A stretch of 64,000 nucleotides of DNA from a virus (IMGVR_UViG_3300007351_000001); one strand, 5' to 3'; shown: positions 12,138 to 42,662, numbered from the stretch's first letter. Made by a program: numbers and translations. Notes: generated by a model from the letters alone, not told the origin.

Positions 12138-12142
12138 TGAAG

Positions 12143-12224: not shown

Positions 12225-12230
12225 CAATGC

Positions 12231-12260: not shown

Positions 12261-12265
12261 AGGAG

Positions 12266-17071: not shown

Positions 17072-17193
17072 GGTCGGCGCGTAGCATACCTCTTCAGCTT
17101 TTGTCCAGCACCACCTCACCACCCCACCACACTGACGGCACCGGTCGTCATTAACCGCGGCCTTTTTGTGAGCCGCGAAGCGAGGTCACCCGC

Positions 17194-22982: not shown

Positions 22983-23327
22983 GTGGCCGATCCACAGGGC
23001 ATCCTCTCGATTCAGCGAGTCCGGTTGCCGCGCACGTCGCGGTACCGGACGACGCTTGTCTATCCCGACTTGGGGCCGAGCTTCGGCCGCTTTGACCACC
23101 GTCCCCTCGACTTGCCATCGCACGAGAGCGACGACTACCACCGTGTCATCTTGGGAGAACAGTTCCGTCTCGATCTGGTGGCGTGGAAACGCTACGGCAC
23201 GCCGCGGCTGTGGTGGGTGCTGGCACTCATCAACGAGATTCGGAACCCGTTCGTTGCGCCCGCGGTCAATACGCTCCTGCGCGTCCCGACCATCGAGCGC
23301 GTGGTCTCACAGATCCTGAAGCAATGA
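22983..23327 (+). CDS. Baseplate wedge protein, T4 gp53/P2 gpX (LysM-like)
   Basis: RLDLVAWKRYGTPRLWWVLALIN.I.NPF. Confidence 0.85.
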   Translation: MADPQGILSIQRVRLPRTSRYRTTLVYPDLGPSFGRFDHRPLDLPSHESDDYHRVILGEQFRLDLVAWKRYGTPRLWWVLALINEIRNPFVAPAVNTLLRVPTIERVVSQILKQ

Positions 23328-25336: not shown

Positions 25337-26016
25337 TGTCGTTGAGCAGCCTTTATCCCTACCACGTCGCGCTCACGCGCAACGTCCGCCAAGCGCTCGT
25401 ACCTGCTTCGGGTTCGACGGTGGAGATCTTTGTCTCTGGTACCGGCGTGTCCAAGCAGCTCTACAGCGATCCAGACGGGCAGATCCTGCTTGATCAGCCG
25501 TTCCCGGTCGACATCGACGGGGAAGCGAATCTCTGGATCCAGCCAGGGCGCATTCGCGTCGTCGCGCGCCTCGATCCCGTGCACGAAGAAGTGTGGGAAG
25601 ACGAGGTCTGCGACTGCGATTCGATCCCAAGCCAGCCGAGCCCGATCACCGGCCTCTTGAAGAACGAGGTCGAGGTCGAGATCGTCGGCACGACGATCAA
25701 CGTTCCGTCGCTGCTGGTCGCGAACACCCAAGGCTACGGCGTGACCTGTCTGGTGACCTCGCAGATCACCGGCACGCTCACCGGCTTCTACCTCGGTCTC
25801 GCGAGCCCGGCCGGCATGTTGCAGGCCTTCTCGAAGCTCGGACAGGTCGGTCTGGCATCAGGCCAGAAGACGGGCACCAAGGACATCGCGATCAACAGCC
25901 CCTGGAACCAAGCCAACGGCGGCGATGCCGTGATCACGGCCGTCAACGGCTCAGGAACCGGTGGGACGGTGCTCTGCACCTACTGGTACCTGCAGCTGGA
26001 AACCACGGTGGGGTGA
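25336..26016 (+). CDS. Structural protein with tailspike-anchor-like N-terminal domain (no signal peptide)
   Basis: TVEIFVSGT....LYSDPDG...L.QPF..D.DG...LW..PG resembles baseplate/head-binding N-termini of tailspikes. Confidence 0.55.
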   Translation: MSLSSLYPYHVALTRNVRQALVPASGSTVEIFVSGTGVSKQLYSDPDGQILLDQPFPVDIDGEANLWIQPGRIRVVARLDPVHEEVWEDEVCDCDSIPSQPSPITGLLKNEVEVEIVGTTINVPSLLVANTQGYGVTCLVTSQITGTLTGFYLGLASPAGMLQAFSKLGQVGLASGQKTGTKDIAINSPWNQANGGDAVITAVNGSGTGGTVLCTYWYLQLETTVG

Positions 26017-26019
26017 CGC

Positions 26020-26730
26020 ATGCGTACATGGGTGGCGGTGGTAGTGACGGTGGTGTTGGCAGCAGGTGCGTACGCACAGGACCCGCCGTGCCTGACGCCG
26101 TTCGGCTTCAACAACAACTGTCAGTTCATTCCGGGGGCTCCGCTGATCGCTGACTCGACCTCGTCGGCGCGGTTCCTTCCCGGTGGCGCAACGCACTCGA
26201 TTGACTTCGATGCGCTCTCGCTCTCGCACGACGGCTCGCAATGCACGGGGCCAACCGATGTCGAGCTGAACAGTGGGCCGCACGACTTCACGATCAACTG
26301 CAACGATCACGCAGACTCGATCGTCGGCGCGAGCATTGGCATGCCGACGGGATGGGATGGGGGCTCGGTCTCGTTCGAGATGTTCATCGTCTCCAACGAC
26401 CCGGTCCCGACCGGTGTGTACTACTGGGACTTCGTGTGCGGCTGCGTCGCAGACGGCGATGTGGTGAGCAGCTCGATCTACAGTGTCTCCGACTCGATCG
26501 ACGACTTCGTGCGCATCCAGCTCGACATCACCGACGAGTGGACGGTGCGCATGGGGCATACGGGGCTCGTGACCTGCGCCGGCACGTGTGAGGGCGGGCA
26601 GATGCTCTTCTGGCAAGCGCGGCTAAATGCGCCAGAGACGACCGCAACGCCCTGCGAAGACGTCGGCATTTTGAACATCAAGCTGCGCTACAACGTGTCG
26701 GGCGCATTCGATCCGATCCCGACGCCGTAA
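26020..26730 (+). CDS. Signal-peptide Cys-rich protein (exported island gene 1)
   Basis: MRTWVAVVVTVVLAAGAYA|Q; many Cys; ends PIPTP*. Confidence 0.8.
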   Translation: MRTWVAVVVTVVLAAGAYAQDPPCLTPFGFNNNCQFIPGAPLIADSTSSARFLPGGATHSIDFDALSLSHDGSQCTGPTDVELNSGPHDFTINCNDHADSIVGASIGMPTGWDGGSVSFEMFIVSNDPVPTGVYYWDFVCGCVADGDVVSSSIYSVSDSIDDFVRIQLDITDEWTVRMGHTGLVTCAGTCEGGQMLFWQARLNAPETTATPCEDVGILNIKLRYNVSGAFDPIPTP

Positions 26731-26759
26731 GCGCGGCTGGGCTGGTGGAGGTGGTGGTG

Positions 26760-27422
26760 ATGAAGCGATGGCTCATGGTGGCGCTCGTCCTCGCCTGGGC
26801 GAGTGTCGCCCAGGCGGGGCAGGTGCACTTCCTGCCGCTCGGCTCCTTTGTGCGTGCGGGGGTCTGCGCGACCGACGGTGTGACGTCGTGCGCGTCGGCC
26901 GCGGACTGCTCCAGCGGTACCTGCCAGCTGAACGCCGGGTGCAGCAAGCAGCGGGTGATCGGGACGAAGTTCCCGGTGGTCAGCATGCAATGCACCGCGA
27001 CAGGCATCCAGGAGTTCTTCTGGGAGTTCGTCACGCCGCCAGACATGCCAGCGAGCGTTGTTGCGCAGGTCTATTTCCACACGGCAGCCACCACCGGCGC
27101 GGTCTGTTTCGACGCGACGGTCACCATCATGGACCACAACCAATCAGTCCCGTTGCTGACCACGGCATTGGATCCGACCCCAGATGTCATCGCGTCAGGG
27201 TCTGGCAACCCGTCGATCTCGCTGCCGGCAAACCAGCTCTACCAGTACAGCCAGACGCTCACGCCGTACCGGCGCTCCAACGACGGCGACGGGAGCGGCA
27301 ACTGCTCGGCGACCAACTGCCGGAGCCGGTACGCGATTCTGCGCCTCGCGCGCAAGAACAGCGGCTGTGCCGGCAACGTCGCCAGCGACGTGTTCGTCGA
27401 CGGAGTGGGCTTCACCTACTGA
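26760..27422 (+). CDS. Signal-peptide Cys-rich protein (exported island gene 2)
   Basis: GGAGGTGGTGG SD; MKRWLMVALVLAWASVAQA|G. Confidence 0.8.
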   Translation: MKRWLMVALVLAWASVAQAGQVHFLPLGSFVRAGVCATDGVTSCASAADCSSGTCQLNAGCSKQRVIGTKFPVVSMQCTATGIQEFFWEFVTPPDMPASVVAQVYFHTAATTGAVCFDATVTIMDHNQSVPLLTTALDPTPDVIASGSGNPSISLPANQLYQYSQTLTPYRRSNDGDGSGNCSATNCRSRYAILRLARKNSGCAGNVASDVFVDGVGFTY

Positions 27423-27430
27423 GGTTGTTT

Positions 27431-30400
27431 GTGACGCGCGCGTGGTGGGTTAGCGTCCTGCTTCTGATCTCGGTGCAGGCGGCGGTGGCACAAACACCGA
27501 CCGCAACGCCAGGCGTGTGCCCTGGGGATTGCAACCACGACGGCGTGGTGACCATCGCCGAGAAGGACCAAGCGATTGCCATCATCAACGGCGCCGACCT
27601 CTCCACGTGCCCAGCGGCCGACGTCAATGGGGATGGGCGCGTCCGCGCGAACGAGATCACGATCATCATCAACACGATCACCAACGGCCAGTGCGGGCCG
27701 CGGGTTGGCCCCCAGCTGTTGCACAACACGCCGACGCCGACGATCGCCGTCACCTGTCCGTGCGATTGCGACAGTAACGGCATCGTCACCGAGTCCGAGA
27801 AGGACATCGCCGTCGACATCATCAACGGGATCCGTCCGCTCACCGACTGCCCGCAGGCAGACGTGAACCAAGACGGCCAGGTGCGCGCGAACGAGATCAC
27901 GCAGTGCATCAACGCGATCGTCAGCGGCCCGTGCGCGCTGCCGCGGTACCTTCCCGGCTGCGCCGGTGACTGCAACAACGACGGCCTGGTCGTGCAGTCG
28001 GAGATTCAGACCATGACGGACATCGTGAACGGTCTCCGGCCGTTCAGTGACTGCCCGAACGGGGATGGCAACGGCGACGGTCAGATCCGCGCGGCCGACA
28101 TCACGATCGCGATCAACGCGCTGAACTACAGCTGCGCCTACGACGACCCGCCGCGGCTCTATTTCTCGCTGCCGCCCCCAACCGGCACGCCGACGCCAAC
28201 CGTCGTGCCGACTGCCTACGTCGTCCCGGTCCTGATCGGTCACACGAAGACGCCGACGCCGTCCCTGGCAATCGTGGTCAGTACGCCGACACCGTTCTTC
28301 ACCTTGACGGGCACGCCGACTGCCACGAGCACGCCAACACCGACAGAGATCATCTGTGGCAGCTACAGCGACGTCGTCATGGACGACGACCCGCGCGTCT
28401 ACTACTTGCTCGACGAACCGAGCGGCGCGACGATCGCGAAGGACCGCATGCACCGGCATGACGGGCTCTACGCGGCGACCGACATCGCGTTCGAGGAACC
28501 GGGCTGTTGCGTGGGGCAGGCGACGCCAGAGCCCACGCCGACGCCCGGTACTCCGTTCTTCGCCCACGGCTGCTACACCGGCGACAACACCGATGACCGC
28601 GACATTGCGGTTGGCTTCCGCCCCTCGCTCGTGTGGCTCGGCGAAGCGACGGTAGCCAACGGCAACACCAACAAGATGTCCTACCGCGACCGGACTCACG
28701 CAGACGGCGAGTCGGGCGTCTTGCAGACTGGCCTCGGCAACGGAAACCAGACCAACGCGATCCAGTCCTTCGGTGACACGACCTTCCAGATCGGCACTTC
28801 GACGCTGGTCAACGGCCTCGGGCGTCCGTACTGCTGGGCGGCGTGGCAAGAGGCGCCCGACTACATGGAAGTCGGACAGTTCGCCGGTGATGCGGCTCCG
28901 AACCACCAGATCCCGACCGGCTTCACGCCGGATGTAGCGGTGGTGCATCCAGTGGTCAGCACCATCTTCAACCGCATCGGAACACCTTTCCTGCGCACGA
29001 CGGCGATGGGCACGGGAGATTTCTCCTGCGTGTGGGCGAACGCGAGCGCCATTGAGTGCAAGGACGGTGGCATCACCGCACTCCTCAGCTCGCCATTCAC
29101 TGGCTTCTCGATCTCGAACTTCGGACCGGTGTGGCCACTCAACCACATCGGCGGTGAGCATCACTACGCCGTCTTGAAGGAGCACACGAACTATCTCGAC
29201 TTCGGCATCTACACGGGCGACGGGCTGATCGGCGGCAACACGCAGACGATCACCACTGACTGCCCGGCGGTCGCCGCCGTCTTCATTCGCGGCGTGCCGA
29301 GCAACAACACCTGCTCGATGTGGCGCTCCTCGTCGATGGAGACGCCGTACGTCACGCACGCGGGCTTCGCGATGGGCGTGAACCAGCCAGGTGGGAACGC
29401 GGGCGGTATCCGTCCACTCGCCGGCAACACGGGCGAGTTCACCATCGAGAAGGGCAGCTCGTCACCGGACGCAGATTGCAACGTCAACAACACCACCTAC
29501 TTCTGGTGGGCGATGTGTGAAGGGCCGAGCCCGACGGCGACGCCGACCGTCACCATCACGCCGACGCCGACCCACACTGGCACGCCGACCGACACGCCGA
29601 ACCCGTCGTTCACGCAGGTCTGTGAATCGCGCAACAACGCGGCTGCGGCCGGCACGGGCTGGACCGTCGACACCGGCACCGGCACGGTCGTGACCGGGTA
29701 CAACACCACCGGCCCATCGAACGTCTTGAAGCTCCAGAACTTGGGCTTCGCGATCCCGCCGGGCTCGACCATCCTCGGCATCGAGGTCGACATGGGCGGC
29801 GGCGGGCCACGCAACGGGCTCACGTCGAGCTTCCTGCCGGTCACTACCGTCTGCGACTCGTGGACGACCTCGCCGCGCGACACGATCGTGCAGCTGCTCG
29901 ACGCAAATGGTGATCCGGTCGGGGACAACAAGGCCACCGGTTCCAGTTGGCCTCCAACCGGGAACAGCGTCCTCTTCCCAGATGGCTACGGCGGGGCCAC
30001 GGACCTCTGGGGCTCGACGTGGGACGCGGCCACGATCAACGACACGAGCTTCGGCGTACAGGTGCAGGTCGACTGGGCTTCGTCGAACGACGAAACCGAC
30101 TGCGACCAGTACTGGACGGTGGAGTTCGCTGACCCAGACGACAAGCCTGACATCAGCGCTGGCTTGGCGAACATCACGGTCTGCTACGAGGGCATCGCCC
30201 CCACGGCGACCGAGACCCCAACACCGTCGTCGACGCCTACGCCTACCCCGACCGGCATGGGCTGCTCGACCTACTCGTTCGACGTCGGGTTCGAGTGCCT
30301 GACCACGTTCACCACCACCGCCAGCGGCGGCTCGGTGGATTGGGGTGGTGACTGCTCGACGGCAATCTCGGCGAGCGTCAGCTCAGGGGCTGCTGGGACG

Positions 30401-30820
30401 ACCTATCTCTTGAAGATTGCCGGCGGCACGCTCACGGCCGGTGATCCAGTGCCTGGCAGCGCGACCATCGACGGGATCCGTCTGACCTCTGGCATGGGCT
30501 TCACGCACTCCGACGAGTTCTGCGAGCCAATCATGTGGGACGCGGCACCGCAGGATAACGTTGTACGCCTGGTCAACGCCGCCGGCACGGTCGTCGGCAC
30601 TGACAAGGGCAACGACGCGACGATCATCCAGGGGACGATCTACGGCGGGCTCGCAGACGACTGGTCCGCCAGCCTCACCGGAGCAGACTTTGCTGGTGAT
30701 GACTTCGGCTTCGCGTTCCAATCGACGTTCGATGCGACCACCAACACCGCTGACGACTGCGGCGGCACGCGTGGGGTCGTGTTCAGTACCACGACCATGG
30801 AGGTCTGTTGGCACGAATGA
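27431..30820 (+). CDS. Large exported mosaic protein: three dockerin-like EF-hand pairs, LamG fragment, YTG-repeat domain, two AIP..TI.GI/YGG..D.W domains, Thr-Pro linkers (island gene 3)
   Basis: GTG 27431 (MTRAWWVSVLLLISVQAAVA|QTPTATP); repeats C.GDC..DG.V...E...IING...CP.AD.N.DG.VRANEIT; PRVYYLLDE (LamG start). Confidence 0.85.
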   Translation: MTRAWWVSVLLLISVQAAVAQTPTATPGVCPGDCNHDGVVTIAEKDQAIAIINGADLSTCPAADVNGDGRVRANEITIIINTITNGQCGPRVGPQLLHNTPTPTIAVTCPCDCDSNGIVTESEKDIAVDIINGIRPLTDCPQADVNQDGQVRANEITQCINAIVSGPCALPRYLPGCAGDCNNDGLVVQSEIQTMTDIVNGLRPFSDCPNGDGNGDGQIRAADITIAINALNYSCAYDDPPRLYFSLPPPTGTPTPTVVPTAYVVPVLIGHTKTPTPSLAIVVSTPTPFFTLTGTPTATSTPTPTEIICGSYSDVVMDDDPRVYYLLDEPSGATIAKDRMHRHDGLYAATDIAFEEPGCCVGQATPEPTPTPGTPFFAHGCYTGDNTDDRDIAVGFRPSLVWLGEATVANGNTNKMSYRDRTHADGESGVLQTGLGNGNQTNAIQSFGDTTFQIGTSTLVNGLGRPYCWAAWQEAPDYMEVGQFAGDAAPNHQIPTGFTPDVAVVHPVVSTIFNRIGTPFLRTTAMGTGDFSCVWANASAIECKDGGITALLSSPFTGFSISNFGPVWPLNHIGGEHHYAVLKEHTNYLDFGIYTGDGLIGGNTQTITTDCPAVAAVFIRGVPSNNTCSMWRSSSMETPYVTHAGFAMGVNQPGGNAGGIRPLAGNTGEFTIEKGSSSPDADCNVNNTTYFWWAMCEGPSPTATPTVTITPTPTHTGTPTDTPNPSFTQVCESRNNAAAAGTGWTVDTGTGTVVTGYNTTGPSNVLKLQNLGFAIPPGSTILGIEVDMGGGGPRNGLTSSFLPVTTVCDSWTTSPRDTIVQLLDANGDPVGDNKATGSSWPPTGNSVLFPDGYGGATDLWGSTWDAATINDTSFGVQVQVDWASSNDETDCDQYWTVEFADPDDKPDISAGLANITVCYEGIAPTATETPTPSSTPTPTPTGMGCSTYSFDVGFECLTTFTTTASGGSVDWGGDCSTAISASVSSGAAGTTYLLKIAGGTLTAGDPVPGSATIDGIRLTSGMGFTHSDEFCEPIMWDAAPQDNVVRLVNAAGTVVGTDKGNDATIIQGTIYGGLADDWSASLTGADFAGDDFGFAFQSTFDATTNTADDCGGTRGVVFSTTTMEVCWHE

Positions 30821-32808
30821 GCTGGCAGGTGGCGGTAGCCGGAGTGGTGTGCTTTTGGGCGGCAGCTGTGGGCGCTGGGGAAGTGCCCCTGCTCGCCGCC
30901 CGTGCACAAGACCCGGTCAACACGCCGGCCCCGCGCGTCCTGCGCTCGAACCCCGATCAACGCTACTTGGGGGTCGAGTTCGGCGGCACGACCGACACGT
31001 GCACCATCTTCGAGTTCGAGCTGCCCCGCGCCTACGGCACGACGGTGGACGGCCAGTGGAGCGCCCGCCTCGGCTACTTCAGCTGCGGGACCAACTGCAG
31101 CACAGTGGGAGAGTCCATCGTCGACACGACCAACGTGCCGCGGTTCCAGTTTTCCTCGACTTGTATCGGCCCCGGCGACAACTACGAGAGCGCCACACTA
31201 ACGGCAGGAACTGCGTTCAACGCCGAGGCCGTCGCGGGCGAGAACCAGCTCGTCGAGTACACGGCGACGCAGACCAACTGGTTTGTCGAGACGGGCTGCG
31301 ACGAAGGCGACACGGTGCTCGTGCAGCTGTGCCGCCTCGGCAGCGTCGACAGCAACAACGATCTCTTCACGCTCACGGGCGTGTCGTTCTCGTTCGTCGA
31401 GAACCCAGATGCCACGCCAACGGTGACGCACACCTTCACGCCGACTAACACGGCAACCGCGACGCCGACGCACACCTTCACCCCGACGGCCACCGCGACC
31501 GTGACGGACACGGTCACTGCTACGGCCACCGAAACCGCGACCGACACTCCCGAACCCGTGACCGCAACGCCGACCGCGACGGTGGATCCGGAACAGGGTC
31601 AGCTGTTCTTCAAGGGACTGACCTGGACCACCGGCCAGGCGATCTTCACCACCGACGTACAAGGCTCGAACTCCGACGCCAATGCGCGCAAGTTCCTGCC
31701 AGTCGGGATTCGGGTGCAGAATCTCTACGTCTCGTGCGTGGGCGGGCCAGGCGTCGGCAAGACGCTGACGGTCGGGATCATGAAGAACAACGCGCTGATC
31801 ACTGGGTCGACGTGCGTTCTCGCAGGCGCTGGGACCGGTGACGGGGTCTCACGGTGCGATGTCACGTTCCCGAGCCCGGACTCGACCTTCGCGTTCGCCG
31901 CCGGAGACCGGATCACGATTGACGCGACACAGACCGACTCTGGCTCGACCAGTCAGTTGTGCAACGTGTCCATCTACTACAAAGACAACGCGGGGACCGC
32001 GGAGCAGGACGCGCTGGTGTCTGGTGGCGGCAACTCGTTGAACCTTGCCGCGTCCACGACGTACTGCGGGGCGTGGGACAACAACCCCGGCGGTCCGGAG
32101 AGCACGCTCTTCAAGTGCGGATCGCTCAGCGCGGACCACAGTCAGTGGCTCTTGGCTCGCGCAGGCACCTTGTCGGCGCTCAGCTTCAACGTCAACGGGT
32201 ACACGGAGACCGCCGACTGGGTTGCTCAGACCGACGCGGGGACGACCGACTTGAGCGGGCAGATCACCAGCGTCGTCCTCAACATCACCGACACGGCCTG
32301 CACGACCAACTGCGCGGTCGCGGCCGGCGGCTTCTTCCGGTTGCAGCACACGCAGAACACGAGCAACTCCAACTCCCGGTTCCGCAACTGGATGCTGGCG
32401 ATCAGCGGGATGGGGCAGACGTTCTGGTTCCAGAACAGCACCGTCAACGGCACAGTGTACGGCGGTCCGTTCGGAACCACGTCCAGCGCGAACACGATCT
32501 CAGCTGCTTGGCCGGTCGCCAAGCGCTCGACGATCCAGAACTTGATCTTGAAAGGCTGGGGGTCGTTCAACAACGCGGCAACCGCCACCGTGCTCACGGG
32601 GACGGACCCCGCCAGCATGAGCGCGACCGGATTGACGTGCTCGACCAGTGCGAGCGGGTCCGACCTGACCTGCACGAATACCTCGCGGCACATTGGCGTG
32701 GATGAGGGGGCCTACTTGTCCATCCAAGTGGATGCGGTCGGAACCCCGAAGCCGTTCCATGCGTCGTTCGAGCTGTCCGCTGATCCGACGGAGACGCCAA
32801 CTCCATGA
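30817..32808 (+). CDS. Exported protein with Thr-Pro linker and ~400-aa domain duplicated in 33998-38971 (island gene 4)
   Basis: ATGA overlap; MSWQVAVAGVVCFWAAAVGA|G; ends DPTETPTP*. Confidence 0.82.
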   Translation: MSWQVAVAGVVCFWAAAVGAGEVPLLAARAQDPVNTPAPRVLRSNPDQRYLGVEFGGTTDTCTIFEFELPRAYGTTVDGQWSARLGYFSCGTNCSTVGESIVDTTNVPRFQFSSTCIGPGDNYESATLTAGTAFNAEAVAGENQLVEYTATQTNWFVETGCDEGDTVLVQLCRLGSVDSNNDLFTLTGVSFSFVENPDATPTVTHTFTPTNTATATPTHTFTPTATATVTDTVTATATETATDTPEPVTATPTATVDPEQGQLFFKGLTWTTGQAIFTTDVQGSNSDANARKFLPVGIRVQNLYVSCVGGPGVGKTLTVGIMKNNALITGSTCVLAGAGTGDGVSRCDVTFPSPDSTFAFAAGDRITIDATQTDSGSTSQLCNVSIYYKDNAGTAEQDALVSGGGNSLNLAASTTYCGAWDNNPGGPESTLFKCGSLSADHSQWLLARAGTLSALSFNVNGYTETADWVAQTDAGTTDLSGQITSVVLNITDTACTTNCAVAAGGFFRLQHTQNTSNSNSRFRNWMLAISGMGQTFWFQNSTVNGTVYGGPFGTTSSANTISAAWPVAKRSTIQNLILKGWGSFNNAATATVLTGTDPASMSATGLTCSTSASGSDLTCTNTSRHIGVDEGAYLSIQVDAVGTPKPFHASFELSADPTETPTP

Positions 32809-33449
32809 TGCGTGCCATGTTGGTTCTCGCCTTTGTGCTCGCGGCTCCGGCCGCAGTGGCGGATCTCTATCTCCGTGGGGGTGAACTGCGGCCAATGACG
32901 CTCAATCCAGCCGCGGTGACGCTCGATGAGTCTGGCACCCACACGATCAAAGTCATCGACTTCTCCGGATCGGCGCAGACCTGCGCCATGACCCATGCGC
33001 TCTTGCCGGCGACCTACCCGAAGTTCGCCCGCTTGGGTGTGGAGCTGACGTTCGTGGCGCGATCGACCTCGACGGCGCTCTCGCAGTTCGTGATTGGTGG
33101 GGTCTGTCAGCACGAGCCGGCCGACTTCCCGTTTGCGACTTTCACCACCGGTGGGCTCACGTCGGTTGGGTTCACGAGCCCGTCGGTGGGGGACGTGTTC
33201 ACGCACGAGTTCACCTTCCCGGTCACCAACTGCCAGTCCGGCGACACGGTGAGCTTGGCGGTGTGCCGGCACGGGGAGCTGGACGACAACCCGGCCCTGA
33301 TTGGTCTTGTCGATGTGCGTTTTCGATTCCCGTACATCACGGCCACGCCGACGGTCACGTTCACGCCGACCAACACGGCCACGGTGACGGATACCCCAAC
33401 GGCCACGCCAACGGTGACCGCGACCGCGACGGCCACGCCGACGACCTAA
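32805..33449 (+). CDS. Exported protein with C-terminal Thr-Pro tail (island gene 5)
   Basis: MMRAMLVLAFVLAAPAAVA|D; ends TATPTVTATATATPTT*. Confidence 0.8.
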   Translation: MMRAMLVLAFVLAAPAAVADLYLRGGELRPMTLNPAAVTLDESGTHTIKVIDFSGSAQTCAMTHALLPATYPKFARLGVELTFVARSTSTALSQFVIGGVCQHEPADFPFATFTTGGLTSVGFTSPSVGDVFTHEFTFPVTNCQSGDTVSLAVCRHGELDDNPALIGLVDVRFRFPYITATPTVTFTPTNTATVTDTPTATPTVTATATATPTT

Positions 33450-33461
33450 AGGAGAGGCTTG

Positions 33462-33995
33462 ATGAAGTGGTGGTGGGGGCTGGTGGTGGGAGTCCTCCTG
33501 GCGAGTCAGACCGTCTACGGCACCATGGCGGTCACGCTCTATGCTGGGTCGGCGACGCTTCCAGCGACGACTGCAGCGACGATCACGACGATCACCGGCG
33601 CCGCGCGCACCTTCGCGCGCGTCGACTACGCCGCTGGTGCGACCTCGTGCGCGGATTGGCACTTCCAGCTGCCGCTCGAATACGTCGCCGGCAACGCGCT
33701 GGAGCCCGTGCTCGACTACTACACCGCGGCCAATGACGCGGACGTGAGCGTGCGCTACAGCATCATCTGCGCAGCCCAAAGCGAGGCGTACCAGTCGGCG
33801 TCGTTCGTCAACGGCTCGATCGAGGCGCTCACCTCGGGGCCGTCCGATGGTGTGGTACAGCGTGTGTTCGGCGGCTTCACCGAGATCAACGAGACGGGCT
33901 GTGACCCGCTCGATCACGTCGTGCTTCGCATTTGCCGAATCAGTGACTCGAACTCCGGTCGGTTCTCGATCGTGAAGGCTCGGGTGCGTTTCTGA
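33462..33995 (+). CDS. Exported protein (island gene 6)
   Basis: GGAGAGG SD; MKWWWGLVVGVLLASQTVYG|T. Confidence 0.8.
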   Translation: MKWWWGLVVGVLLASQTVYGTMAVTLYAGSATLPATTAATITTITGAARTFARVDYAAGATSCADWHFQLPLEYVAGNALEPVLDYYTAANDADVSVRYSIICAAQSEAYQSASFVNGSIEALTSGPSDGVVQRVFGGFTEINETGCDPLDHVVLRICRISDSNSGRFSIVKARVRF

Positions 33996-33997
33996 TC

Positions 33998-36900
33998 ATG
34001 CATCGAGTCGGCCCGCCTCCCATCATCTGGATTGTCGGTCTCGCCGTCCTCGCGGCGTGCTTCTACTTCTACCAGCCATCGGAGGGGCAGCTGGCCCCGG
34101 CGCAGTTCGTGTTCAACACCGACACGCCGACGCCGACCGTCACCAACACCCCCACGCAGACACCGACGCCGACGGCCACGCCAACGCCGGATCTGGTGAG
34201 CAATCTCCAGGCTCACATCCAGTTCGACGAGACGCCGGTAGTGACCACGAGCTTTGCCGACAGCTCGGGCAACGGGAACGCGGCGGTCTGCAGCCCGTCC
34301 TCTCAGTGCCCAGACGCTGGCTTCCCCGGCCAGTTCGGCTCAGGCGTGAACTTCAACGCTGCACAGAGCGACCAGCTCGCGATCGGCATCGCGGCCGATC
34401 CGTCGCAGTACACGATCGCGGCGTGGGTCTATCTCCTCAGCACGGGCTCGCAGGACATCCTCGTCCGGACCAACAGCAACGGGCCGGTGAGCGACTTCTC
34501 GCACTTCCTGCGCACGGACAGCTCGGGCAAGTTCTCGCACTACGTCGACACTGGCACGAACACGTACTCGGCGACGGCCGCGGGCGCAGCCGGGACTCAC
34601 CAGTGGTATTGCGTCGTCGGCACTTCAGACGGCACGTACGTCCGGCTCTACATTGACGGGGCGCTGGAGACCGAGACCTCGATCCCTGGCGCGTTCCAAG
34701 GCTTGTGGAGCGGGGGCGATCGCTGGGCCATCGGGCCGGCCGCAGGCCTCTCAACCAGCAACTTCGCCAGCCTCATGGACGATGTGCGGATCTACGATCG
34801 CGCGCTGCGGACCGATGAAGTGGCGCAGCTCTGCGCGGTGCCAGCGACGACGCCGACGCCATGGCCAGGCCCGCAAGAGATCCCAAATACGCCGGTGGGC
34901 ACCTTCACCTTCACACCAACCTTCACGGCGACGGTCACGCACACCCCCACGGTGACGGCGACACCAACGATCACGTTGACGCCGACCCCGACGCTCGCGA
35001 GCCCCGAACAGGGCCAGTTCTTCGGGAATGTGCGCTCGAACACGAATGAGACACCTCTCATCGGATTCTCTGGCCCGACGGCGTTCTCCAACCAGTCCAA
35101 TCCGAAGCGTCTCCCCCTCGCTGTTCGAGTGCGCAACCTCTACGTCAACTGCCGCGACGGAGGGCCTGGTGCATCCAAGACGCTGACCTTCGCGCTGCTG
35201 AAAAACGGGAGTGTCGTCACCGGCTCCGACTCGTGCGTGCTCGCAGGCGCCGGCACCGGTGACGGTATCTCGCGGTGCGACCAGACCTTCGCGAACACGT
35301 CGGACTTCGACTTCGCTGCCGGAGACATCATCGCCGTCCAAACCACGCAGTCGGCCTCGGCGTCCACCGGACAGACTTGCCACTTCGCGATGTACTACCG
35401 GCAGGCTGGTGATGCAGGCGAGCAGGACGCGATGATCATGGGACACGACGGGACCGGCAGCATTGGCGCGGGGACGTCGTATTGCGGCGGCTGGTCTGAC
35501 GCGACAGCGACCTCGCCTGTCAATCCCACGTACATCTGCGGGCAAGCGACGTCGGCGCACGCCCGGCACGTCATCCCGCGTGCAGGGACTCTCACTGGGC
35601 TCGCGATGCGCAGCCCAGCGTACAGCAACACGGGCGCGTTTACGATTTTGGTGAACGACACGGTAGATGCGACTGACCTCTCCGTCTCGTTGACGTCCGG
35701 TACCTTGTCCGTGTCGGATACGACGTGCACGACCAACTGCAGCGTTGACCAAGCGGAGTTGATGCATCTGGAGATGGTGCAAAGCGGCGGCTCCTCGGGC
35801 TCCACGAGCGCGCGTAACTGGATGATCTCGCTCGACGGCATGGGGCAGGTGTACCAGGGTAGCAACGACGTCTTCGGCAACACGGCCAACGTCAACTCGC
35901 ACATGGGACCATCCGGCGCTGCGGTGGCGGGTAGTGCACAAGGCGTGTGGCCAGTCGCCAAGCGCTCCACGATGCAGAACCTGTGCGTCCACATGACCAG
36001 CGGGGACAAAAACGGCCAGGTCATCGTCACTGCGCGCAAAGGCACTGATCCTGCCAGCCTGTCCAACACCGCCGTGACCTGCACGACGGGCAGCGGCACG
36101 GGCGAGCAGTCGTGCTGTGACACTACGCACCACGTCGGCGTGGAAGAGGGCGAGTACGTCGAGGTGCACGCGCAGTTCATCGGGACGCCGTCCACGCCGC
36201 GACCGATCGCCATGGGCATGGAAATGTCTGGGGATCCGACCGACACGCCGACGCAGACGCCGACACCAACTGGGACTCTGCCAACCTCGACGCCGACGGC
36301 CACGGTCACGCACACGTCGACGCCGACGTTCACGCCGGGCGGGACGCAGCCGAACTGGGCGAGCGGATGCTTTGACGGGAACGCCGCTGACAACCGGCAG
36401 ATCACGACCGGGTTCCAGCCGGACTGGGTCTTCCTGTCGTGGGACCACTCAATCGGTTCCAGCCGCATCCCGGTGTTCCGGTCGTCTAGCTCACCCTTGG
36501 GCGATGCCTCGTGCGACACGTTCACTCTGCCGGGAGATGATTGCGCCACGACGAACAACATCCAAGCGCTCAATGCGACAGGGTTCGAGGTCGGCACGGC
36601 CTCGAACGACGGCTCGTTCAACTACTGCTACTTGGCGCTGCAAAACCTGGCTGGCCATGTGCAGGAAGGGCGCTACGTCGGCACGGGCACGGACAATCGA
36701 GCCATCGACGTCGGCTTCGTACCTGACGTTGTCCTCGTGTACAACGTCACCAACGTGGTCGTCGACATCTGGAGCTTCCGGACGGCCGACATGCCGTCCG
36801 ATTTCTCCATGCGCTTGAACCAAGCCTCCGGCTTCGCCGAGACCGACCGCATCCAAGATTTCTTGTCCATCGGCCTCGGCGACTCGGTCGACGGGTTCGA

Positions 36901-38971
36901 GGTCGGGACGGTCATGAACACGAGCAGCCGAGTGTACTACTGGGTGGCTCTCAAGCAGCTCGACAACTTCATGGAGTTCGGCCACTACACTGCCACTGGG
37001 GCCGATGACTTCCACATCGACACTGGCAGCTGCTCACCGGACATGGTTCTCATCGCCGCGGACGAGTCAGGCACCGTGGCCGAGTGCCAGCGGCACGCCT
37101 GGGACGACGCGCTGTGGCCGATGCCGCTGTCGCAGTTGGTTTCGGGTTTTACGGTCGACAATCGGATCTTGAGCATCGACAGCAGTCCGGACGGGTTCAC
37201 TGTTGATGCCATCTGTAACGACACTGACGCGGTCAGCGACTACCACTGGCTGGCGTTCTGTGCCGAGGAAGACTTCCCCACCCCCACGCCGACCGGCACG
37301 CCCACCGTGCCGCCCGCGACCAGCACGCCAACGGTCCCGTCGTGTGTGACCGTGTCGAGTTCGACGATGGCCACGGTCTCGACCCTGGCCGGTCCAGGGG
37401 ACGTTGACTGGACCAACCAGGCGGATTTGAGCGATGGGTGTAATACCGAGACTACCGAGGCTACGTTCCCCCAGTTCACCAGCGGCAACACTGCGCAGCT
37501 GCGCGGGCAAGCATATTCTGGTCTCGGTGCCATCCCGGACGCAGCGTCGATCACCGGCATCAAGCTCGACGTCACGCGCCGGCTGGTTGGTCCTGGAGTA
37601 TCAGCCGCGACCGACCAGCTCATCAAGCTGATCCGGCCTGATGGGAACTACACGTCGACCAACAAGGCGGACCTGATCACGCAATGGCCGAGCACGTTGA
37701 CGCTCAAGAGCTATGGCGGGCTCGCGGATACGTGGGGGCAGTCGTGGACTGGTGCGGATGTGAAAGACCCCGACTTTGGTGTCGTCATCAGCGCCGAAGT
37801 CGCGCGTGACGATGGATCGAGTGCTGATGCGCTTGCCGAAGTCGACTGCGCGACGATCACGATCTGCTACGACAACTCGGCGTCCCCGACGCCGGCTGGC
37901 TTGGTCCAGTACCACGTCACACCGGCCCCGAGTTTCACTGGCTCTCCCACCGCAACGCCGACGCCACTGCCCACGCCGTACGCGCAGGCGCAGTACAACC
38001 TGAACACGCCGACGGACACGGCCGCGCCGACCGGCACGCCGACCCCTGGGCCGTACTACCCACCGCAGTACATGTTCAGCACTCCGGCGCCGACGGGGAC
38101 TCCGACGCCTGACATCCCGGACGATTACGACCTGCCAACGCCGACGGCGCTGCCGCCGTCCACGCCGTACGCGCAGGCCCAGTACCTGTTCACGATGCCG
38201 CCGACCGTCACGCCGACGGCGATTGGCTCGCCAACGATCTTCATCCCGCCGCAGATCCTCTTCCAGACGCCGACCAACACGGTCGGTGCGGCCCCGACAC
38301 CGACACCACTGGCCGAGATGATCTGCTCGGACGGTGGTAGCGTCGACCTCGGCGACAGCTACTGGACCAACCTCGCCGCGTTCGAGACGCAGCTGCAGCA
38401 TCCAGCCCCGGTCAACAATGAACTGACGCTGGAAGCCTGGTTGCGGTTCGACCACGATGAACTGAACAAGCCATGGATCGCACGCTGGAACAGCGACGAC
38501 ACGCAAGCCCAGTACGTGCTTCGCGTCTCGCCGACCACGGCTGGCGTCATCGAGTGCTGCGTGCACACCGACACCGGCACGCAGCCGCACTGTGTTGCCT
38601 CGCCGTCGGATGCGCTCCTGAACGACGGGCTGTGCCACCACGTGCTGTGCCGCTACAACGACAACGTGGCGACCGGCAACGGGCTTGCGCTCTGGGTCGA
38701 CGGCGTGAAGGTGGCGACCAACGCGACGGCAAAGGGTAACCTGTCGATCACTACACAGAAGACACGCGTCTTCTGCTACTCGGACAACCGCGACTGCCCG
38801 GAGAGCGAGATGTGTATCCAACACGTGGCGCTCTACGACTTCGCGGTCTCGGAGGAACGGATCCTGAAGCATGCCCGCGCGTGCCGCTCGGGCTGCGTGC
38901 AGCCGACGCCTACGGTGACTCCGGCCGTGACGCCGACTACCCGCCGTGGTGGCCCGGTCCTCTTCCCATGA
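33998..38971 (+). CDS. Very large exported mosaic protein: two LamG/concanavalin-like domains, duplicated domain, YTG repeats, AIP/YGG domain, Thr-Pro linkers (island gene 7)
   Basis: N-terminal hydrophobic IIWIVGLAVLAACFYFY; YTIAAWV...WYCVVGT...LYIDG...MDDVRIYDRAL; TLEAW...LWVDG...I.HVALYD. Confidence 0.85.
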   Translation: MHRVGPPPIIWIVGLAVLAACFYFYQPSEGQLAPAQFVFNTDTPTPTVTNTPTQTPTPTATPTPDLVSNLQAHIQFDETPVVTTSFADSSGNGNAAVCSPSSQCPDAGFPGQFGSGVNFNAAQSDQLAIGIAADPSQYTIAAWVYLLSTGSQDILVRTNSNGPVSDFSHFLRTDSSGKFSHYVDTGTNTYSATAAGAAGTHQWYCVVGTSDGTYVRLYIDGALETETSIPGAFQGLWSGGDRWAIGPAAGLSTSNFASLMDDVRIYDRALRTDEVAQLCAVPATTPTPWPGPQEIPNTPVGTFTFTPTFTATVTHTPTVTATPTITLTPTPTLASPEQGQFFGNVRSNTNETPLIGFSGPTAFSNQSNPKRLPLAVRVRNLYVNCRDGGPGASKTLTFALLKNGSVVTGSDSCVLAGAGTGDGISRCDQTFANTSDFDFAAGDIIAVQTTQSASASTGQTCHFAMYYRQAGDAGEQDAMIMGHDGTGSIGAGTSYCGGWSDATATSPVNPTYICGQATSAHARHVIPRAGTLTGLAMRSPAYSNTGAFTILVNDTVDATDLSVSLTSGTLSVSDTTCTTNCSVDQAELMHLEMVQSGGSSGSTSARNWMISLDGMGQVYQGSNDVFGNTANVNSHMGPSGAAVAGSAQGVWPVAKRSTMQNLCVHMTSGDKNGQVIVTARKGTDPASLSNTAVTCTTGSGTGEQSCCDTTHHVGVEEGEYVEVHAQFIGTPSTPRPIAMGMEMSGDPTDTPTQTPTPTGTLPTSTPTATVTHTSTPTFTPGGTQPNWASGCFDGNAADNRQITTGFQPDWVFLSWDHSIGSSRIPVFRSSSSPLGDASCDTFTLPGDDCATTNNIQALNATGFEVGTASNDGSFNYCYLALQNLAGHVQEGRYVGTGTDNRAIDVGFVPDVVLVYNVTNVVVDIWSFRTADMPSDFSMRLNQASGFAETDRIQDFLSIGLGDSVDGFEVGTVMNTSSRVYYWVALKQLDNFMEFGHYTATGADDFHIDTGSCSPDMVLIAADESGTVAECQRHAWDDALWPMPLSQLVSGFTVDNRILSIDSSPDGFTVDAICNDTDAVSDYHWLAFCAEEDFPTPTPTGTPTVPPATSTPTVPSCVTVSSSTMATVSTLAGPGDVDWTNQADLSDGCNTETTEATFPQFTSGNTAQLRGQAYSGLGAIPDAASITGIKLDVTRRLVGPGVSAATDQLIKLIRPDGNYTSTNKADLITQWPSTLTLKSYGGLADTWGQSWTGADVKDPDFGVVISAEVARDDGSSADALAEVDCATITICYDNSASPTPAGLVQYHVTPAPSFTGSPTATPTPLPTPYAQAQYNLNTPTDTAAPTGTPTPGPYYPPQYMFSTPAPTGTPTPDIPDDYDLPTPTALPPSTPYAQAQYLFTMPPTVTPTAIGSPTIFIPPQILFQTPTNTVGAAPTPTPLAEMICSDGGSVDLGDSYWTNLAAFETQLQHPAPVNNELTLEAWLRFDHDELNKPWIARWNSDDTQAQYVLRVSPTTAGVIECCVHTDTGTQPHCVASPSDALLNDGLCHHVLCRYNDNVATGNGLALWVDGVKVATNATAKGNLSITTQKTRVFCYSDNRDCPESEMCIQHVALYDFAVSEERILKHARACRSGCVQPTPTVTPAVTPTTRRGGPVLFP

Positions 38972-40365
38972 GCAACCTCCTGAACTCGTCCGTCCCTACG
39001 CAGCGACATCTGCGTGAGGTCGAACGACTCTTCCCGCATCTCTACGAGGGCACGGTCGAATACGTCAGCGACCCGATGAACCTCGGACGGATCAAGGTGC
39101 GCGTGCACGGCGTCAACGATCCCGACTCGCAGCGCACGCCGCCAACCTCCTTGCCCTGGTGTTACCCCTGTCACGCGCCAGGGTCGTTCCATGTGCCGGA
39201 AGTGGGCTCCACGTGTTGGGTCCTCTTCCGGCACGGGCTCTCGGACTACCCGGTCTACTTGGGCGTCTGGCACGGGCAACTGAAGAAGCCGGTGGTGAAA
39301 GGCCGGCTGCCGGTTTTCTCGACGCCGGAGGCAAAGCCGACCAAGAACAACGCGGCCGACCAGGTCCTCTCGACCTACCAAGGGCTTGGCGTGCCTGATG
39401 ACCTCCGCTTCCACAACGCCGTCGCACCGCCGGCCCTGCCGGTCTACCAGATCCTCTCGGCGAGCGGAGGCCTCGCCAACTTCGCTGCCGGCACCTCGAT
39501 CACCGTGCAGGACTCGACGTTCAACAACGGCACGTTCCGGATCCTCACTAACAACGGGTTCATCATGACCGTCGATGGGCCGCTCAACGAAGAGGACCTC
39601 TCGACGGCGACGATCGGGCAGATCCTCGTCCCACCAGCCTCGAACAACTTCACCTCGTACTTGGAGCCGCCGGGCAACGAGTCGCCGCGGGAGTCGTACG
39701 ATCTGAAGCAGTCGATCGACCCGACGGTGAAGGTGCACTGGCAGACGCCAAAAGGGGCGACCGCGTACAGCGTCGACGACGACGGGGAAGAACGCACGGC
39801 GATCGTCGATCGCATGGGGCAGGGGCTGCACCTGGTCGGGGCAGTCACCAGCTCTGCGAACCAGCACAACAAGGCACGGCGCCGCCGGCAAGAAGTGCGC
39901 GACGGTACCGGGCTCCCGGTCGACCAAGCCGTCGACGGCAAGGCGAGCGTCGAGCTGTACGACCTCCTTGGCCAGTTCGTGAAGCTCATGTCCGACGGTG
40001 GAGGTAGTTGCATCGTCGAGATTCACGGGAAGGACGGCGCCTCGGGATTCTTCCGCATCGCGCAGGATGGCATGCGGATCACAATCCGCTCTGATGCCGA
40101 CTCGCAGATGGTGATGGACGAGTCGATCGTCATGCAAGCACAGGTCGACGGCAGCGGGCCGAAGCTCTCCCTCCTCTCCTCGGGAGTGGCGAAGCTGGAG
40201 AATCAAGCGGGTACCGCGTCGCTGACACTCGATCAGTCTGGGGGCTACGAGCTGAAGAACAGCGCAGGCGCGCAGGTGACGGGGAGCCCGGCCGGCACGC
40301 TCGCGCTCAAGTCGAGTATCACCATCACGATCGACGCGCCGATCGTGCAGACCAACGGAGGATGA
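38968..40365 (+). CDS. Baseplate central spike (gp5/gpV-type OB fold plus beta-helix)
   Basis: ATGA overlap; GTV....DP..LGRIKVRV, LPWCYP, FHVPEVGS.CWVLF.HG...YPVYLG. Confidence 0.88.
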   Translation: MSNLLNSSVPTQRHLREVERLFPHLYEGTVEYVSDPMNLGRIKVRVHGVNDPDSQRTPPTSLPWCYPCHAPGSFHVPEVGSTCWVLFRHGLSDYPVYLGVWHGQLKKPVVKGRLPVFSTPEAKPTKNNAADQVLSTYQGLGVPDDLRFHNAVAPPALPVYQILSASGGLANFAAGTSITVQDSTFNNGTFRILTNNGFIMTVDGPLNEEDLSTATIGQILVPPASNNFTSYLEPPGNESPRESYDLKQSIDPTVKVHWQTPKGATAYSVDDDGEERTAIVDRMGQGLHLVGAVTSSANQHNKARRRRQEVRDGTGLPVDQAVDGKASVELYDLLGQFVKLMSDGGGSCIVEIHGKDGASGFFRIAQDGMRITIRSDADSQMVMDESIVMQAQVDGSGPKLSLLSSGVAKLENQAGTASLTLDQSGGYELKNSAGAQVTGSPAGTLALKSSITITIDAPIVQTNGG

Positions 40366-40657: not shown

Positions 40658-41394
40658 TGGCACTTTCTGGTGAAACGCTCGGCAGCTTGTTCGGCGCTCA
40701 GAACTCCGCGGGGTTCATCAACCCGATGGCGACGGTACTGGGTGACGTGCACACGAACGCACAGGCGGTCTCCGCAATCATCCCCGCGGAGAACCTCGGC
40801 GTAGGGTGGACCGCGCAGATGCGCGACGACCTCGCCAATGCGATCGGTGCGGTCACAACCGCATCGGGCGGGAATCTCAACGAAATGTCCGGCTTCACGG
40901 GCGGACTCGCGTTCATGAACGGCAACCCGACCTACGACGCGCACACGACAGCGATGATCGCGGAGATGTCGGACAACATCACGCTCGCGCGCAGCTACGG
41001 GTCGGCTGCGGCGCAGCTCGGCGACAAAATCCCGAGTTGCACAGCCGCGGTGAAGAAGTTCTTCGGGCCGTTGCTGAAGGAAGCCCAGGAACTCTGGGAT
41101 GACGTGAAGAGCTTCCTGAACGACATCCGGGAGCTGATCCTGCAAGGCATCGAGTTCATCCGCGATGTGATCAACACCGTCGTGGAGAAACTCTTGGAGT
41201 ATCTCGCCAAGGCCATCAACTTCATTCGGGACTCGATCAACGAAGGGGTGCGCATGGCGAAGGACTTGCTCGACTATGTGATGGCGCAGATTCTTCCCGG
41301 CTCGTTCGAGGACGGGTGCTTGAAGGAAGTCGTTGAAGCTGTGGTCTCACCTGACACGTTGCAGATCCTGTCGAATCTGCCGATCCCAGCCTGA
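40657..41394 (+). CDS. Hypothetical helical baseplate-region protein
   Basis: TGATG overlap; 245 aa. Confidence 0.7.
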   Translation: MALSGETLGSLFGAQNSAGFINPMATVLGDVHTNAQAVSAIIPAENLGVGWTAQMRDDLANAIGAVTTASGGNLNEMSGFTGGLAFMNGNPTYDAHTTAMIAEMSDNITLARSYGSAAAQLGDKIPSCTAAVKKFFGPLLKEAQELWDDVKSFLNDIRELILQGIEFIRDVINTVVEKLLEYLAKAINFIRDSINEGVRMAKDLLDYVMAQILPGSFEDGCLKEVVEAVVSPDTLQILSNLPIPA

Positions 41395-41762
41395 TGGCGC
41401 TCTACTTCGGCCCTGGACTTCCCACCGCCGCCTTCTGCTTCCCCGCAATCAAGCGGGATGAGGCGCTCGTGCGCGACTCCATCGTCCAGATCCTCGGCAC
41501 ACGGCAAGGCAGTCGGCTGCACCAGCCGGAGTTCGGCTCCCGTTTGGAAGAGTTGGTGTTCGAGCCGAACGATGCGGCGCTGCGCACGCTGGTCGAGGAG
41601 ATGATCTTCGAGGCGATCACACGGTGGGAGCCACGCGTGGATCTCGTCGGCGTTGCCGTCAACCCTGACGAGAACCTGCTGCGTGTGTCGATCTCGATGG
41701 TGATCAAGCGGCTGAACATTCCGTTCGACTTGCCGCTCACCATCTCGCGGAACAACATCTAG
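41394..41762 (+). CDS. Baseplate wedge gp25/gpW-like protein
   Basis: SI.QIL.TR.G.R...PEFGS.L..L.FEPND; I.RWEPRV. Confidence 0.92.
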   Translation: MALYFGPGLPTAAFCFPAIKRDEALVRDSIVQILGTRQGSRLHQPEFGSRLEELVFEPNDAALRTLVEEMIFEAITRWEPRVDLVGVAVNPDENLLRVSISMVIKRLNIPFDLPLTISRNNI

Positions 41763-42615: not shown

Positions 42616-42662
42616 CTGCGTACTTGCGCGCATGACACGGCGTGAGACGAAGGAGATCCCTC

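Follow-up and report, generated by a model that had tools for sequence, protein, structure and literature searches.

Tailed-phage particles are thought to assemble wholly in the cytoplasm, and the exported proteins that phages encode are usually regarded as small accessory 'morons'. Examples are the T5 lipoprotein Llp, Cor of T1 and phi80, and Lom and Bor of lambda, which are exported envelope proteins encoded near tail and receptor-binding genes. Proteins of the Llp/Cor type block receptors at the envelope of the infected cell, and guard in this manner against superinfection and against the loss of progeny on debris. Here we describe a stretch of 64,000 nucleotides (hereafter, the window) from the virus IMGVR_UViG_3300007351_000001, in which seven consecutive genes with predicted export signals (g1 to g7) occupy 13 kb between the baseplate hub and the central spike of a contractile-tail module. 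The window corresponds to bases 46243-110242 of a complete virus record of 241,426 bp with direct terminal repeats and a guanine-cytosine (GC) content of 65%, and the phage is a jumbo myovirus with a contractile-tail module recognised by Pfam.

The island resembles the Llp, Cor, Lom and Bor genes in that phage genes with Sec or lipoprotein signals lie beside or within a tail-fibre region. However, the latter encode single small proteins, often separately transcribed and not made of fibre-type domains, while the island consists of seven coupled genes inside the hub-to-spike block and includes giants of 1129 and 1657 amino acids (aa) with lectin-like modules, dockerins and Thr-Pro linkers. An Llp/Cor-type protein is a small outer-membrane lipoprotein that binds the receptor of the phage; in the island, g7 is the only protein with a lipobox, and it has 1657 aa. 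A second parallel is found in the multi-tailspike or branched receptor-binding clusters of jumbo and other phages, such as Klebsiella phage PhiK64-1, CBA120 and the G7C adaptor system, where diversified binding-protein genes are also clustered behind an adaptor-like protein and domains are also shuffled between genes. Multi-tailspike proteins are, however, signal-less and trimeric and have conserved N-terminal docking domains; the island proteins combine export signals with conserved Cys and linkers of a monomer type, and none of them has a recognised docking domain. Cellulosome-type assemblies, and with them cellular surface fibres built of phage-fibre modules such as the MAT fibres of Bdellovibrio, share with the island the secreted multi-module proteins, Thr/Pro linkers, jelly rolls of the carbohydrate-binding module (CBM) type and dockerins that fit extracellular cohesin scaffoldins; in contrast, the island lies in the baseplate operon of a phage genome, has no recognised catalytic modules and carries dockerins without a cohesin of its own. 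In the literature searched, we found no description of signal-bearing fibre-domain clusters in baseplate operons, nor of dockerins or cohesins in phage tail modules. Export of phage proteins encoded near tail genes (Llp, Cor, Lom) is known, and what we did not find described is a conserved multi-gene block of fibre-type domains inside a baseplate operon.

Gene layout and export signals

The interval between hub and spike contains one signal-less gene followed by the seven genes of the island, all on the + strand (Table 1). Stop and start codons overlap as TGATG between the hub and the signal-less gene, and as ATGA at the g3/g4, g4/g5 and g7/spike junctions; the remaining island junctions are gaps of 2-29 nucleotides with GGAGG-type ribosome sites. 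Simple scans for sigma-70 promoters and for terminators inside the island gave nothing above shuffled background. Because of these coupled junctions and the lack of an internal promoter or terminator above background, the island reads as one coupled unit. A sigma-54-type motif (TGGCAC-N6-TGC) was not found within the window. The g2 gene is masked by a longer out-of-frame open reading frame (ORF; 26768-30820) but is judged a real gene because a related phage has a 38%-identical orthologue and this genome has nine paralogues. The true start of g3 is the GTG at 27431, immediately past the g2 stop.

Export signals were called by a rule-based scan combined with inspection and conservation. A Sec signal for signal peptidase I (SPI) was defined by a positive n-region, an uncharged hydrophobic core of 7-15 residues and small residues at positions -3 and -1, and a lipoprotein signal by a lipobox, [LVI][ASTVI][GAS]C, ending the hydrophobic core. 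Predicted signals of the Sec/SPI kind are found in g1 to g6, with K or R in the n-region, a hydrophobic core of 11-16 residues and a small-x-small site; the predicted cleavage sites of the set are AYA↓Q, AQA↓G, AVA↓Q, VGA↓G, AVA↓D and VYG↓T. In g7, a 12-residue hydrophobic core closes in the lipobox L-A-A-C, and we read this N-terminus as a lipoprotein signal rather than as a plain anchor. Hence, all seven consecutive genes of the island have an export signal, compared with around 13% of ORFs genome-wide under a loose rule.

The island proteins contain 1.9-3.8% Cys, against 0-0.7% in the sheath, the tube, the tape measure, the gp6-like protein and the DUF4815 protein, and 0.9-1.2% in the hub and the spike. 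In an alignment of 11 sequences of the g2 family, the alanine at -3 is invariant, the alanine at -1 is near-invariant and five Cys are invariant. Domain B, a module of g4 and g7, has six near-invariant Cys across an alignment of 41 sequences. A further module, domain C, provides a natural experiment within one genome: it is found twice in g3 and once in g7, in the signal-bearing protein P0012 of another phage, and also in the signal-less DUF4815 protein of this phage. Alignment of these copies reveals a Cys pair in the exported proteins g3, g7 and P0012 that is replaced in the DUF4815 copy, so that signal and Cys pair occur together in the exported proteins and are both missing from the virion fibre protein. 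Altogether, four independent lines (synteny, paralogues, the redox signature and the natural control offered by domain C) indicate that the predicted signals are real, and export of the island proteins from the cytoplasm is highly probable. Since all seven carry export signals, their folding would have to occur outside the cytoplasm in which phage particles are built, an unusual situation.

An artefactual origin of the signals was also considered. High-GC DNA offers many alternative starts, and g3, g4 and g6 either start at GTG or TTG or show two candidate starts; one could thus imagine that the island encodes cytoplasmic fibres with mis-called starts, and that the 'signals' are untranslated or chance hydrophobic stretches. 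We consider this extremely improbable. Each hydrophobic segment directly follows the preceding stop, with a ribosome site or an overlap, and the segments and their cleavage motif are kept in orthologues and in 11 paralogues. In addition, the segments accompany conserved Cys that are missing from cytoplasmic relatives, and the effect involves every one of the seven consecutive genes, far above the genome-wide frequency given above.

The original prediction, made from the sequence of the window, had described seven co-oriented, tightly spaced genes between hub and spike, some with ATGA overlaps, each opening with a Sec-type signal or anchor and encoding a Cys-rich protein with Thr-Pro linkers. 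Gene calls and junction sequences confirm the layout, and the signals are borne out as six of SPI type and one lipobox in place of a plain anchor. The Cys-rich, Thr-Pro-linked character also holds, given that canonical tail proteins contain 0-1.2% Cys. The wider proposal, that extracytoplasmic proteins made of fibre-type domains are encoded in a tail operon, receives strong support from the signals, the Cys pattern and the conservation of the island in a syntenic relative.

Conservation of the island and related exported clusters

Hub homologues in related phages are 46-48% identical to the hub of this phage. In the relative L022 (48%), the hub is followed by a homologue of the signal-less 25336-26016 protein and by five signal-bearing genes. 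Orthologues of g1 (43% identical, cleavage site ARA↓D) and g2 (38%) are present among them, and the cleavage sites of both align with those of this phage; signal peptides in syntenic genes, to which the original prediction had looked as a check, are thus observed in this relative. The first giant protein of the L022 island (1667 aa) has a lipobox, L-G-A-C, and a g1-type domain fused inside. The same small genes lie downstream of the hub in two further relatives. The sole sizeable gap in the hub-to-island block of L022 (12733-13193, around 460 bp) apparently contains a small antisense ORF. A relative of g6 found in a Logan contig (P0014) keeps the hydrophobic signal despite substitutions.

The signal-less protein that opens the block is kept beside the hub in three relatives, including L022, where the orthologue is 49% identical and directly follows the hub, and L023. 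Its ESM Atlas feature score to a viral cluster of 597 members is 0.95, and its residues 1-100 resemble the N-terminal modules of tailspike, Collar and Gp53-like proteins with a TM (template modelling) score of only 0.37-0.48. The original prediction had proposed this protein as an adaptor with a tailspike-like N-terminus. With TM scores in this range, the baseplate-adaptor assignment is a lead and not a result.

Two clusters of the same exported families lie in the genome outside the window. The g2 family has 10 paralogues in this phage, and seven of them, of around 195 aa and with signals, are arranged in tandem with overlapping stop and start codons in cluster L024 (genome positions 220351-225692). 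After the array comes a signal-bearing protein of 149 aa that contains two dockerins; one of these shares 89% identity with the first of the g3 dockerins. Cluster L025 (genome positions 25730-31062) likewise consists of signal-bearing proteins: two are g2-like, one of 578 aa resembles PQQ/BamB propellers and has a Thr-Pro tail, and one of 540 aa is Cys-rich and of the NosD/beta-helix kind, with weak Pfam matches. The 540-aa protein might be a secreted glycan-active enzyme. Together, the island and these clusters add up to 23.6 kb, or 9.8% of the genome.

The presence of dockerins raises the matter of their partners. A search at E<=1 detected no cohesin in this phage. The DUF7483 protein of L022 has a cohesin right after the signal (24.9 bits, cut-off 24.1), at the place where g3 has its dockerins. 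Because cohesin-dockerin pairs work outside the cell, these modules again place the island proteins there. Their distribution suggests that the dockerin proteins may dock onto a scaffold of the host or onto one another.

Modules, folds and distant relatives

Internal BLAST comparisons indicate that modules have been shuffled among the island genes: domain A is found in g4, g5 and g6, domain B in g4 and g7, and a DUF7483-like region together with domain C in g3 and g7. The dockerin-like repeats and LamG domains noticed in the original prediction are recovered by Pfam as Dockerin_1 (PF00404) in g3 (E 5e-10, 39.8 bits, cut-off 22.9) and Laminin_G_3 (PF13385, LamG/concanavalin A-like lectin) in two stretches of g7 (113.7 bits, E 1e-32). 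The genome scan resolves three dockerin modules in g3, and the translated sequence displays paired calcium-binding loops of the D-x-N-x-D-G type; the DUF7483 match of g3 is below the Pfam cut-off. The order of modules in g7 is Thr-Pro tether, LamG (~34397-34825), domain B (34997-36244), DUF7483-like region, domain C, Pro-rich linker and second LamG. The modules of the island, which are CBM6/35/36-like, triple TNF/C1q-like, LamG and domain C, belong to folds that bind glycans or ligands, and Thr-Pro linkers join them. None of the seven proteins contains a catalytic domain recognised by Pfam, nor a tail-fibre, anchor or virion-attachment family recognised by Pfam or PHROGs, beyond a similarity of LamG to a 'virion structural protein' PHROG.

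The domain B copies of g4 and g7 are 39% identical over 412 aa (BLAST). The AlphaFold2 (AF2) model built from the 41-sequence alignment contains three tandem jelly rolls, with a predicted local distance difference test (pLDDT) of 90 and a predicted TM score (pTM) of 0.91. Each subdomain aligns at Z 7-9 to TNF/C1q-family domains, a phage spike knob, the head of a cyanophage short fibre and exosporium proteins. The top Foldseek matches of the whole domain are single-chain trimers of C1q, adiponectin and APRIL-BAFF and the three-jelly-roll coats of plant viruses, with a probability of 1.0 to single-chain C1q/TNF trimers. As modelled, the fold class is clear, a TNF/C1q-like triple jelly roll in a single chain, but the global TM score is only 0.2-0.3, so that a trimer-like arrangement of the subdomains is not established. 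The three tandem jelly rolls recall the single-chain coats of nepoviruses and comoviruses and engineered TNF-family trimers. Jelly rolls of this sort also form the C1q/TNF-like, BclA-like heads of collagen-like phage fibres, from which domain B differs in its conserved Cys, its signal peptides and its lack of sequence-level membership.

The g2 family is modelled with less certainty (pLDDT 77, pTM 0.75). VIA-align matches it to CBM35, CBM36 and CBM6 (Z 10.2-10.9, root-mean-square deviation (rmsd) 2.5-2.7 A, 116-126 of 119-131 target residues aligned) at 5-10% identity, and no Pfam family matches g2 at E<=0.01; hence, the resemblance to CBM6, CBM35 and CBM36 is one of fold only. Viral look-alikes of the family in BFVD are heads of collagen-like fibres and minor-tail proteins. 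In the ESM Atlas, g1 resembles small viral proteins, some with collagen stalks, and g5 resembles viral proteins of the fibre-head type, CBM6/35 and the ligand-binding jelly roll of ephrin receptors. Domain A of g4 is similar to g5 and g6 in BLAST comparisons. A heterotrimer of the domain-A proteins g4, g5 and g6 was envisaged and dropped, as domain A is more like monomeric jelly rolls of the CBM/ephrin-receptor type. No link of g1 or g2 to domain A was detected by hhalign, so that descent of the small jelly rolls from one ancestor is not established.

Word-index searches found a single outside relative each for domain B and domain A, and an exhaustive profile search was needed to find more: 163 relatives of domain B among 1.84 billion representatives. 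Single-protein scans of viral contigs with the hub or with g4 yielded no relative, and domain B had no tblastn match in 50,697 GenBank phages. A signal-like N-terminus is present in 22 of the 31 closest domain-B relatives that start with Met; of the remaining nine, eight are gene calls whose start lies inside the domain. Thr-Pro linkers are found in half of the signal-bearing relatives. More distant relatives, of around 400 aa, are signal-less, have half the Cys (p 9e-10) and are encoded in siphovirus tail modules. Examples of such signal-less, Cys-poor triple-jelly-roll proteins, for which no Pfam or PHROG model exists, are L028 8001-9257, encoded after the tape measure, and L026 789-2015, near an SPP1_Dit gene. 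Given the presence of signal-less distant relatives in siphovirus tail modules, the exported clade seems to derive from a tail fold of virions.

Relatives of domain B are also found in five contigs of SU10-like podophages (L001, L003, L004, L012 and L013), where they cluster with several signal-bearing proteins. In four of these contigs (L001, L003, L004 and L012), which are unrelated to this phage and have 47-68% GC, we observed three to four signal-bearing, Thr-Pro-linked proteins each, one of them with a perfect lipobox (L-A-G-C). Four consecutive proteins of 680-1588 aa make up around 22% of the 52-kb contig L012. In L004, three large signal-bearing proteins (7250-14745) lie between head genes and adaptor, and no other obvious fibre gene is found in the 22 kb of sequence analysed. 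In L001 (8111-15207) and L003, an M15-type peptidase-like gene and small membrane or lipobox genes lie in between the genes of the signal-bearing homologues.

One relative of domain B lies in an ordinary chromosomal context, in a soil metagenome-assembled genome of around 7 Mb and 64% GC (G001). This genome encodes four copies of domain B, a scaffoldin with three cohesins, at least 18 dockerins, LpxC and RpoN. Its NCBI label, Candidatus Margulisiibacteriota, looks doubtful. Full-length domain B was found in 2 of 61 sampled genomes of the same class.

The features of the window are listed in Table 1. The membrane glycosyltransferase encoded antisense between sheath and tube is a possible modifier of the Thr-Pro linkers. 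Relative L022 has no such gene at the equivalent position, which points to a recent insertion outside the conserved island. At the beginning of the window, a 202-aa protein (2229-2837, + strand) has a signal-like N-terminus and a nuclease domain of the GH-E/HNH type (Pfam GH-E E 3.6e-5, just under the cut-off), and is possibly an exported nuclease. The nearest cultured relatives according to the sheath are Bacillus phage SP-15 (34%) and the Sinorhizobium phage phiM12 group (26%), and neither hints at the host.

Table 1. Tail-module and island features, with positions counted from the first nucleotide of the window.
Feature	Position	Strand	Basis or remarks
Sheath	13072-14826		Pfam
GT-C (PMT_2-like) membrane glycosyltransferase	15500-17122	-	Pfam PMT_2, E 1.3e-5, just below cut-off
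Tube	17194-17820		Pfam
T4_baseplate protein	17961-18818		Pfam
Tape measure	19146-22304		Pfam
Tube-initiator-like protein	22286-22981		Pfam
Baseplate hub (upstream island border)	23324-25336	+	Pfam SLT (lytic transglycosylase) and YQBQ-like, gp27-type C-terminus; PHROG tail-protein families
Signal-less 226-aa protein, candidate baseplate adaptor	25336-26016	+	Start overlaps hub stop (TGATG); N-terminus not hydrophobic
g1, predicted exported Cys-rich jelly-roll protein, 236 aa	26020-26730	+	Sequence; signal AYA↓Q
g2, predicted exported CBM6/35/36-like jelly-roll protein, 220 aa	26760-27422	+	Alignment and AF2 model; signal AQA↓G
g3, predicted exported protein, 1129 aa	27431-30820	+	GTG start; signal, three dockerins (~27518-28135), Thr-Pro linkers, DUF7483-like region, two domain C
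g4, predicted exported protein, 666 aa	30808/30817-32808	+	Signal, jelly-roll domain A, Thr-Pro linker, domain B (31579-32793)
g5, predicted exported protein, 214 aa	32805-33449	+	Signal AVA↓D, domain A, Thr-Pro tail
g6, predicted exported protein, 178 aa	33459/33462-33995	+	Signal VYG↓T, domain A
g7, predicted lipoprotein, 1657 aa	33998-38971	+	Lipobox L-A-A-C, residues 18-21
Central spike with gp5-type OB domain (downstream island border)	38968-40365	+	Pfam Phage_base_V, E 3.7e-10; PHROG baseplate hub/tail lysozyme
gp25	41394-41762		Pfam
gp6/J	42642-44243		Pfam
P2-I-like protein	44247-45137		Pfam
Tail-fibre-network component	45161-45739		Pfam
DUF4815 baseplate/fibre protein, signal-less, 1965 aa	45755-51652		Pfam DUF4815, E 1.7e-60
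Domain C copy in the DUF4815 protein, signal-less and Cys-free	49745-50233	+	tblastn to g7, 34% identity over 161 aa, E 3e-10

Roles considered for the island

The original prediction had offered two interpretations, exported virion appendages or a late cell-surface coat built from fibre-type domains. That part is only partly supported, and the evidence leans to the second. The reading we prefer, tentatively and with somewhat less than even confidence, is that the island, a conserved cassette, encodes modular lectin-like proteins that are exported by Sec, stabilised by disulfides and active on the envelope of the infected cell late in infection. We lean this way because g7 and its L022 counterpart have lipoboxes; because g3 opens with three dockerins where L022 has a cohesin; because no virion-attachment domain was found by Pfam or PHROGs; because the architecture is one of monomeric beads on Thr-Pro linkers; and because the same exported families also make up two clusters away from the tail genes. 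In such a scenario, the island would be transcribed and translated together with the baseplate genes, and late in infection its products would cross the membrane and become oxidised, and their Thr-Pro linkers might receive O-glycans. Retention at the envelope would be due to the g7 lipid anchor and to binding of dockerins to the cohesins of host scaffoldins; there, modules of the virion-fibre kind, such as domain C, would bind surface glycans or receptors. The most likely benefit would be to mask or occupy receptors on the infected cell and on debris, which fits the fact that domain C is common to exported proteins and virion fibre. As an outcome, competing phages would be excluded, progeny would be kept off dead cells, or adhesion to neighbouring cells would be altered.

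Several considerations weigh against an envelope coat. Known exclusion proteins such as Llp and Cor are small and are not encoded inside baseplate operons, and 13 kb of coding capacity in a late operon is a heavy cost for an accessory role. The seamless coupling to hub and spike and the position kept through deep divergence fit a virion-linked role at least as well. Furthermore, a bacterium of the G001 type, a diderm with lipopolysaccharide (LPS), is a candidate host lineage on the circumstantial grounds of GC content, protein style and sigma-54. In an LPS-diderm host, Sec alone would leave soluble proteins in the periplasm, and a surface coat would therefore need a further step; no onward secretion signal was recognised in the island proteins.

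In the appendage interpretation, receptor-binding fibres are exported, oxidatively folded and perhaps glycosylated, and join the baseplate as lysis mixes the compartments, possibly via the 25336-26016 protein. Apart from the coupled location between hub and spike, with no internal promoter or terminator above background, it can count on the position of the genes in relatives, always behind the adaptor-like protein, on the presence of domain C in the phage's own fibre protein, and on the signal-less domain-B relatives of siphovirus tail modules. L004, with three large signal-bearing proteins where fibres are expected and no other obvious fibre gene in the 22 kb of sequence analysed, is also in line with it, and a multi-gene cluster of binding proteins behind an adaptor recalls the branched multi-tailspike phages. 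We nevertheless consider it unlikely, as neither a virion-attachment domain nor a trimerising shaft domain was recognised in these monomeric, Thr-Pro-linked beads, g7 and its L022 counterpart look lipid-anchored, and the dockerins have no cohesin partner in this phage. The clusters outside the tail module and the conventional signal-less baseplate and fibre set already encoded by the phage also argue against it. Exported virion appendages that are added later have no known precedent in tailed phages, and none was found in the literature searched. A slightly lower chance is given to the extended version in which receptor-binding appendages are folded and attached to the baseplate outside the cytoplasm, at or after lysis, both in this jumbo myovirus lineage and in the SU10-like podophages of the same habitat.

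A role in egress or dispersal, in which the exported modules and the beta-helix and propeller proteins would act on the wall, S-layer or exopolysaccharide matrix at lysis and so release virions, finds some encouragement in the peptidase-like and small membrane or lipobox genes interleaved with the L001 and L003 homologues, in the signal-bearing beta-helix (a weak NosD/Beta_helix-like match) and PQQ-propeller-like proteins of L025, and in the usual association of CBM-type folds with glycan-active enzymes. A model for such accessory proteins is XepA of the defective Bacillus prophage PBSX, likewise an exported beta-sandwich protein of phage origin whose gene lies among late or lysis genes. XepA is, however, a single small protein of a lysis cassette in a monoderm host, and its structural match is weak and unreliable (Z 7.3, rmsd 25 A). 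With no catalytic domain recognised in the seven proteins, and with the island located in the baseplate block instead of a lysis cassette, we rate this possibility below the appendage interpretation. Finally, the genes could be captured host surface-protein genes, carried passively or for the benefit of the host. Signal-bearing domain-B proteins do occur in the ordinary chromosomal context of a bacterium, and dockerins, Thr-Pro linkers and richness in Cys are typical of such bacterial secretomes. Yet the position and content of the island are kept between phages with 48%-identical hubs, the genes are coupled to essential ones, these families take up around 10% of the genome and have expanded in tandem to 10 paralogues, and few of the sampled genomes of the bacterial class contain full-length domain B. 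Host-derived cargo is accordingly an improbable explanation.

Regardless of the role, around one tenth of this jumbo phage genome amounts to a predicted secretome of lectin-like modules with dockerins, and signal-bearing kin recur in unrelated podophages. Two sizeable uncharacterised families are also defined: one is the triple jelly roll in a single chain, and the other comprises the small exported proteins that resemble CBMs. Should the island encode an envelope coat, phages of this habitat would systematically cover infected cells with duplicates of the binding modules that they themselves use. Should it encode appendages, part of the virion would mature outside the cytoplasm, which would introduce an extracytoplasmic step in the morphogenesis of tailed phages. 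Either would be new biology.

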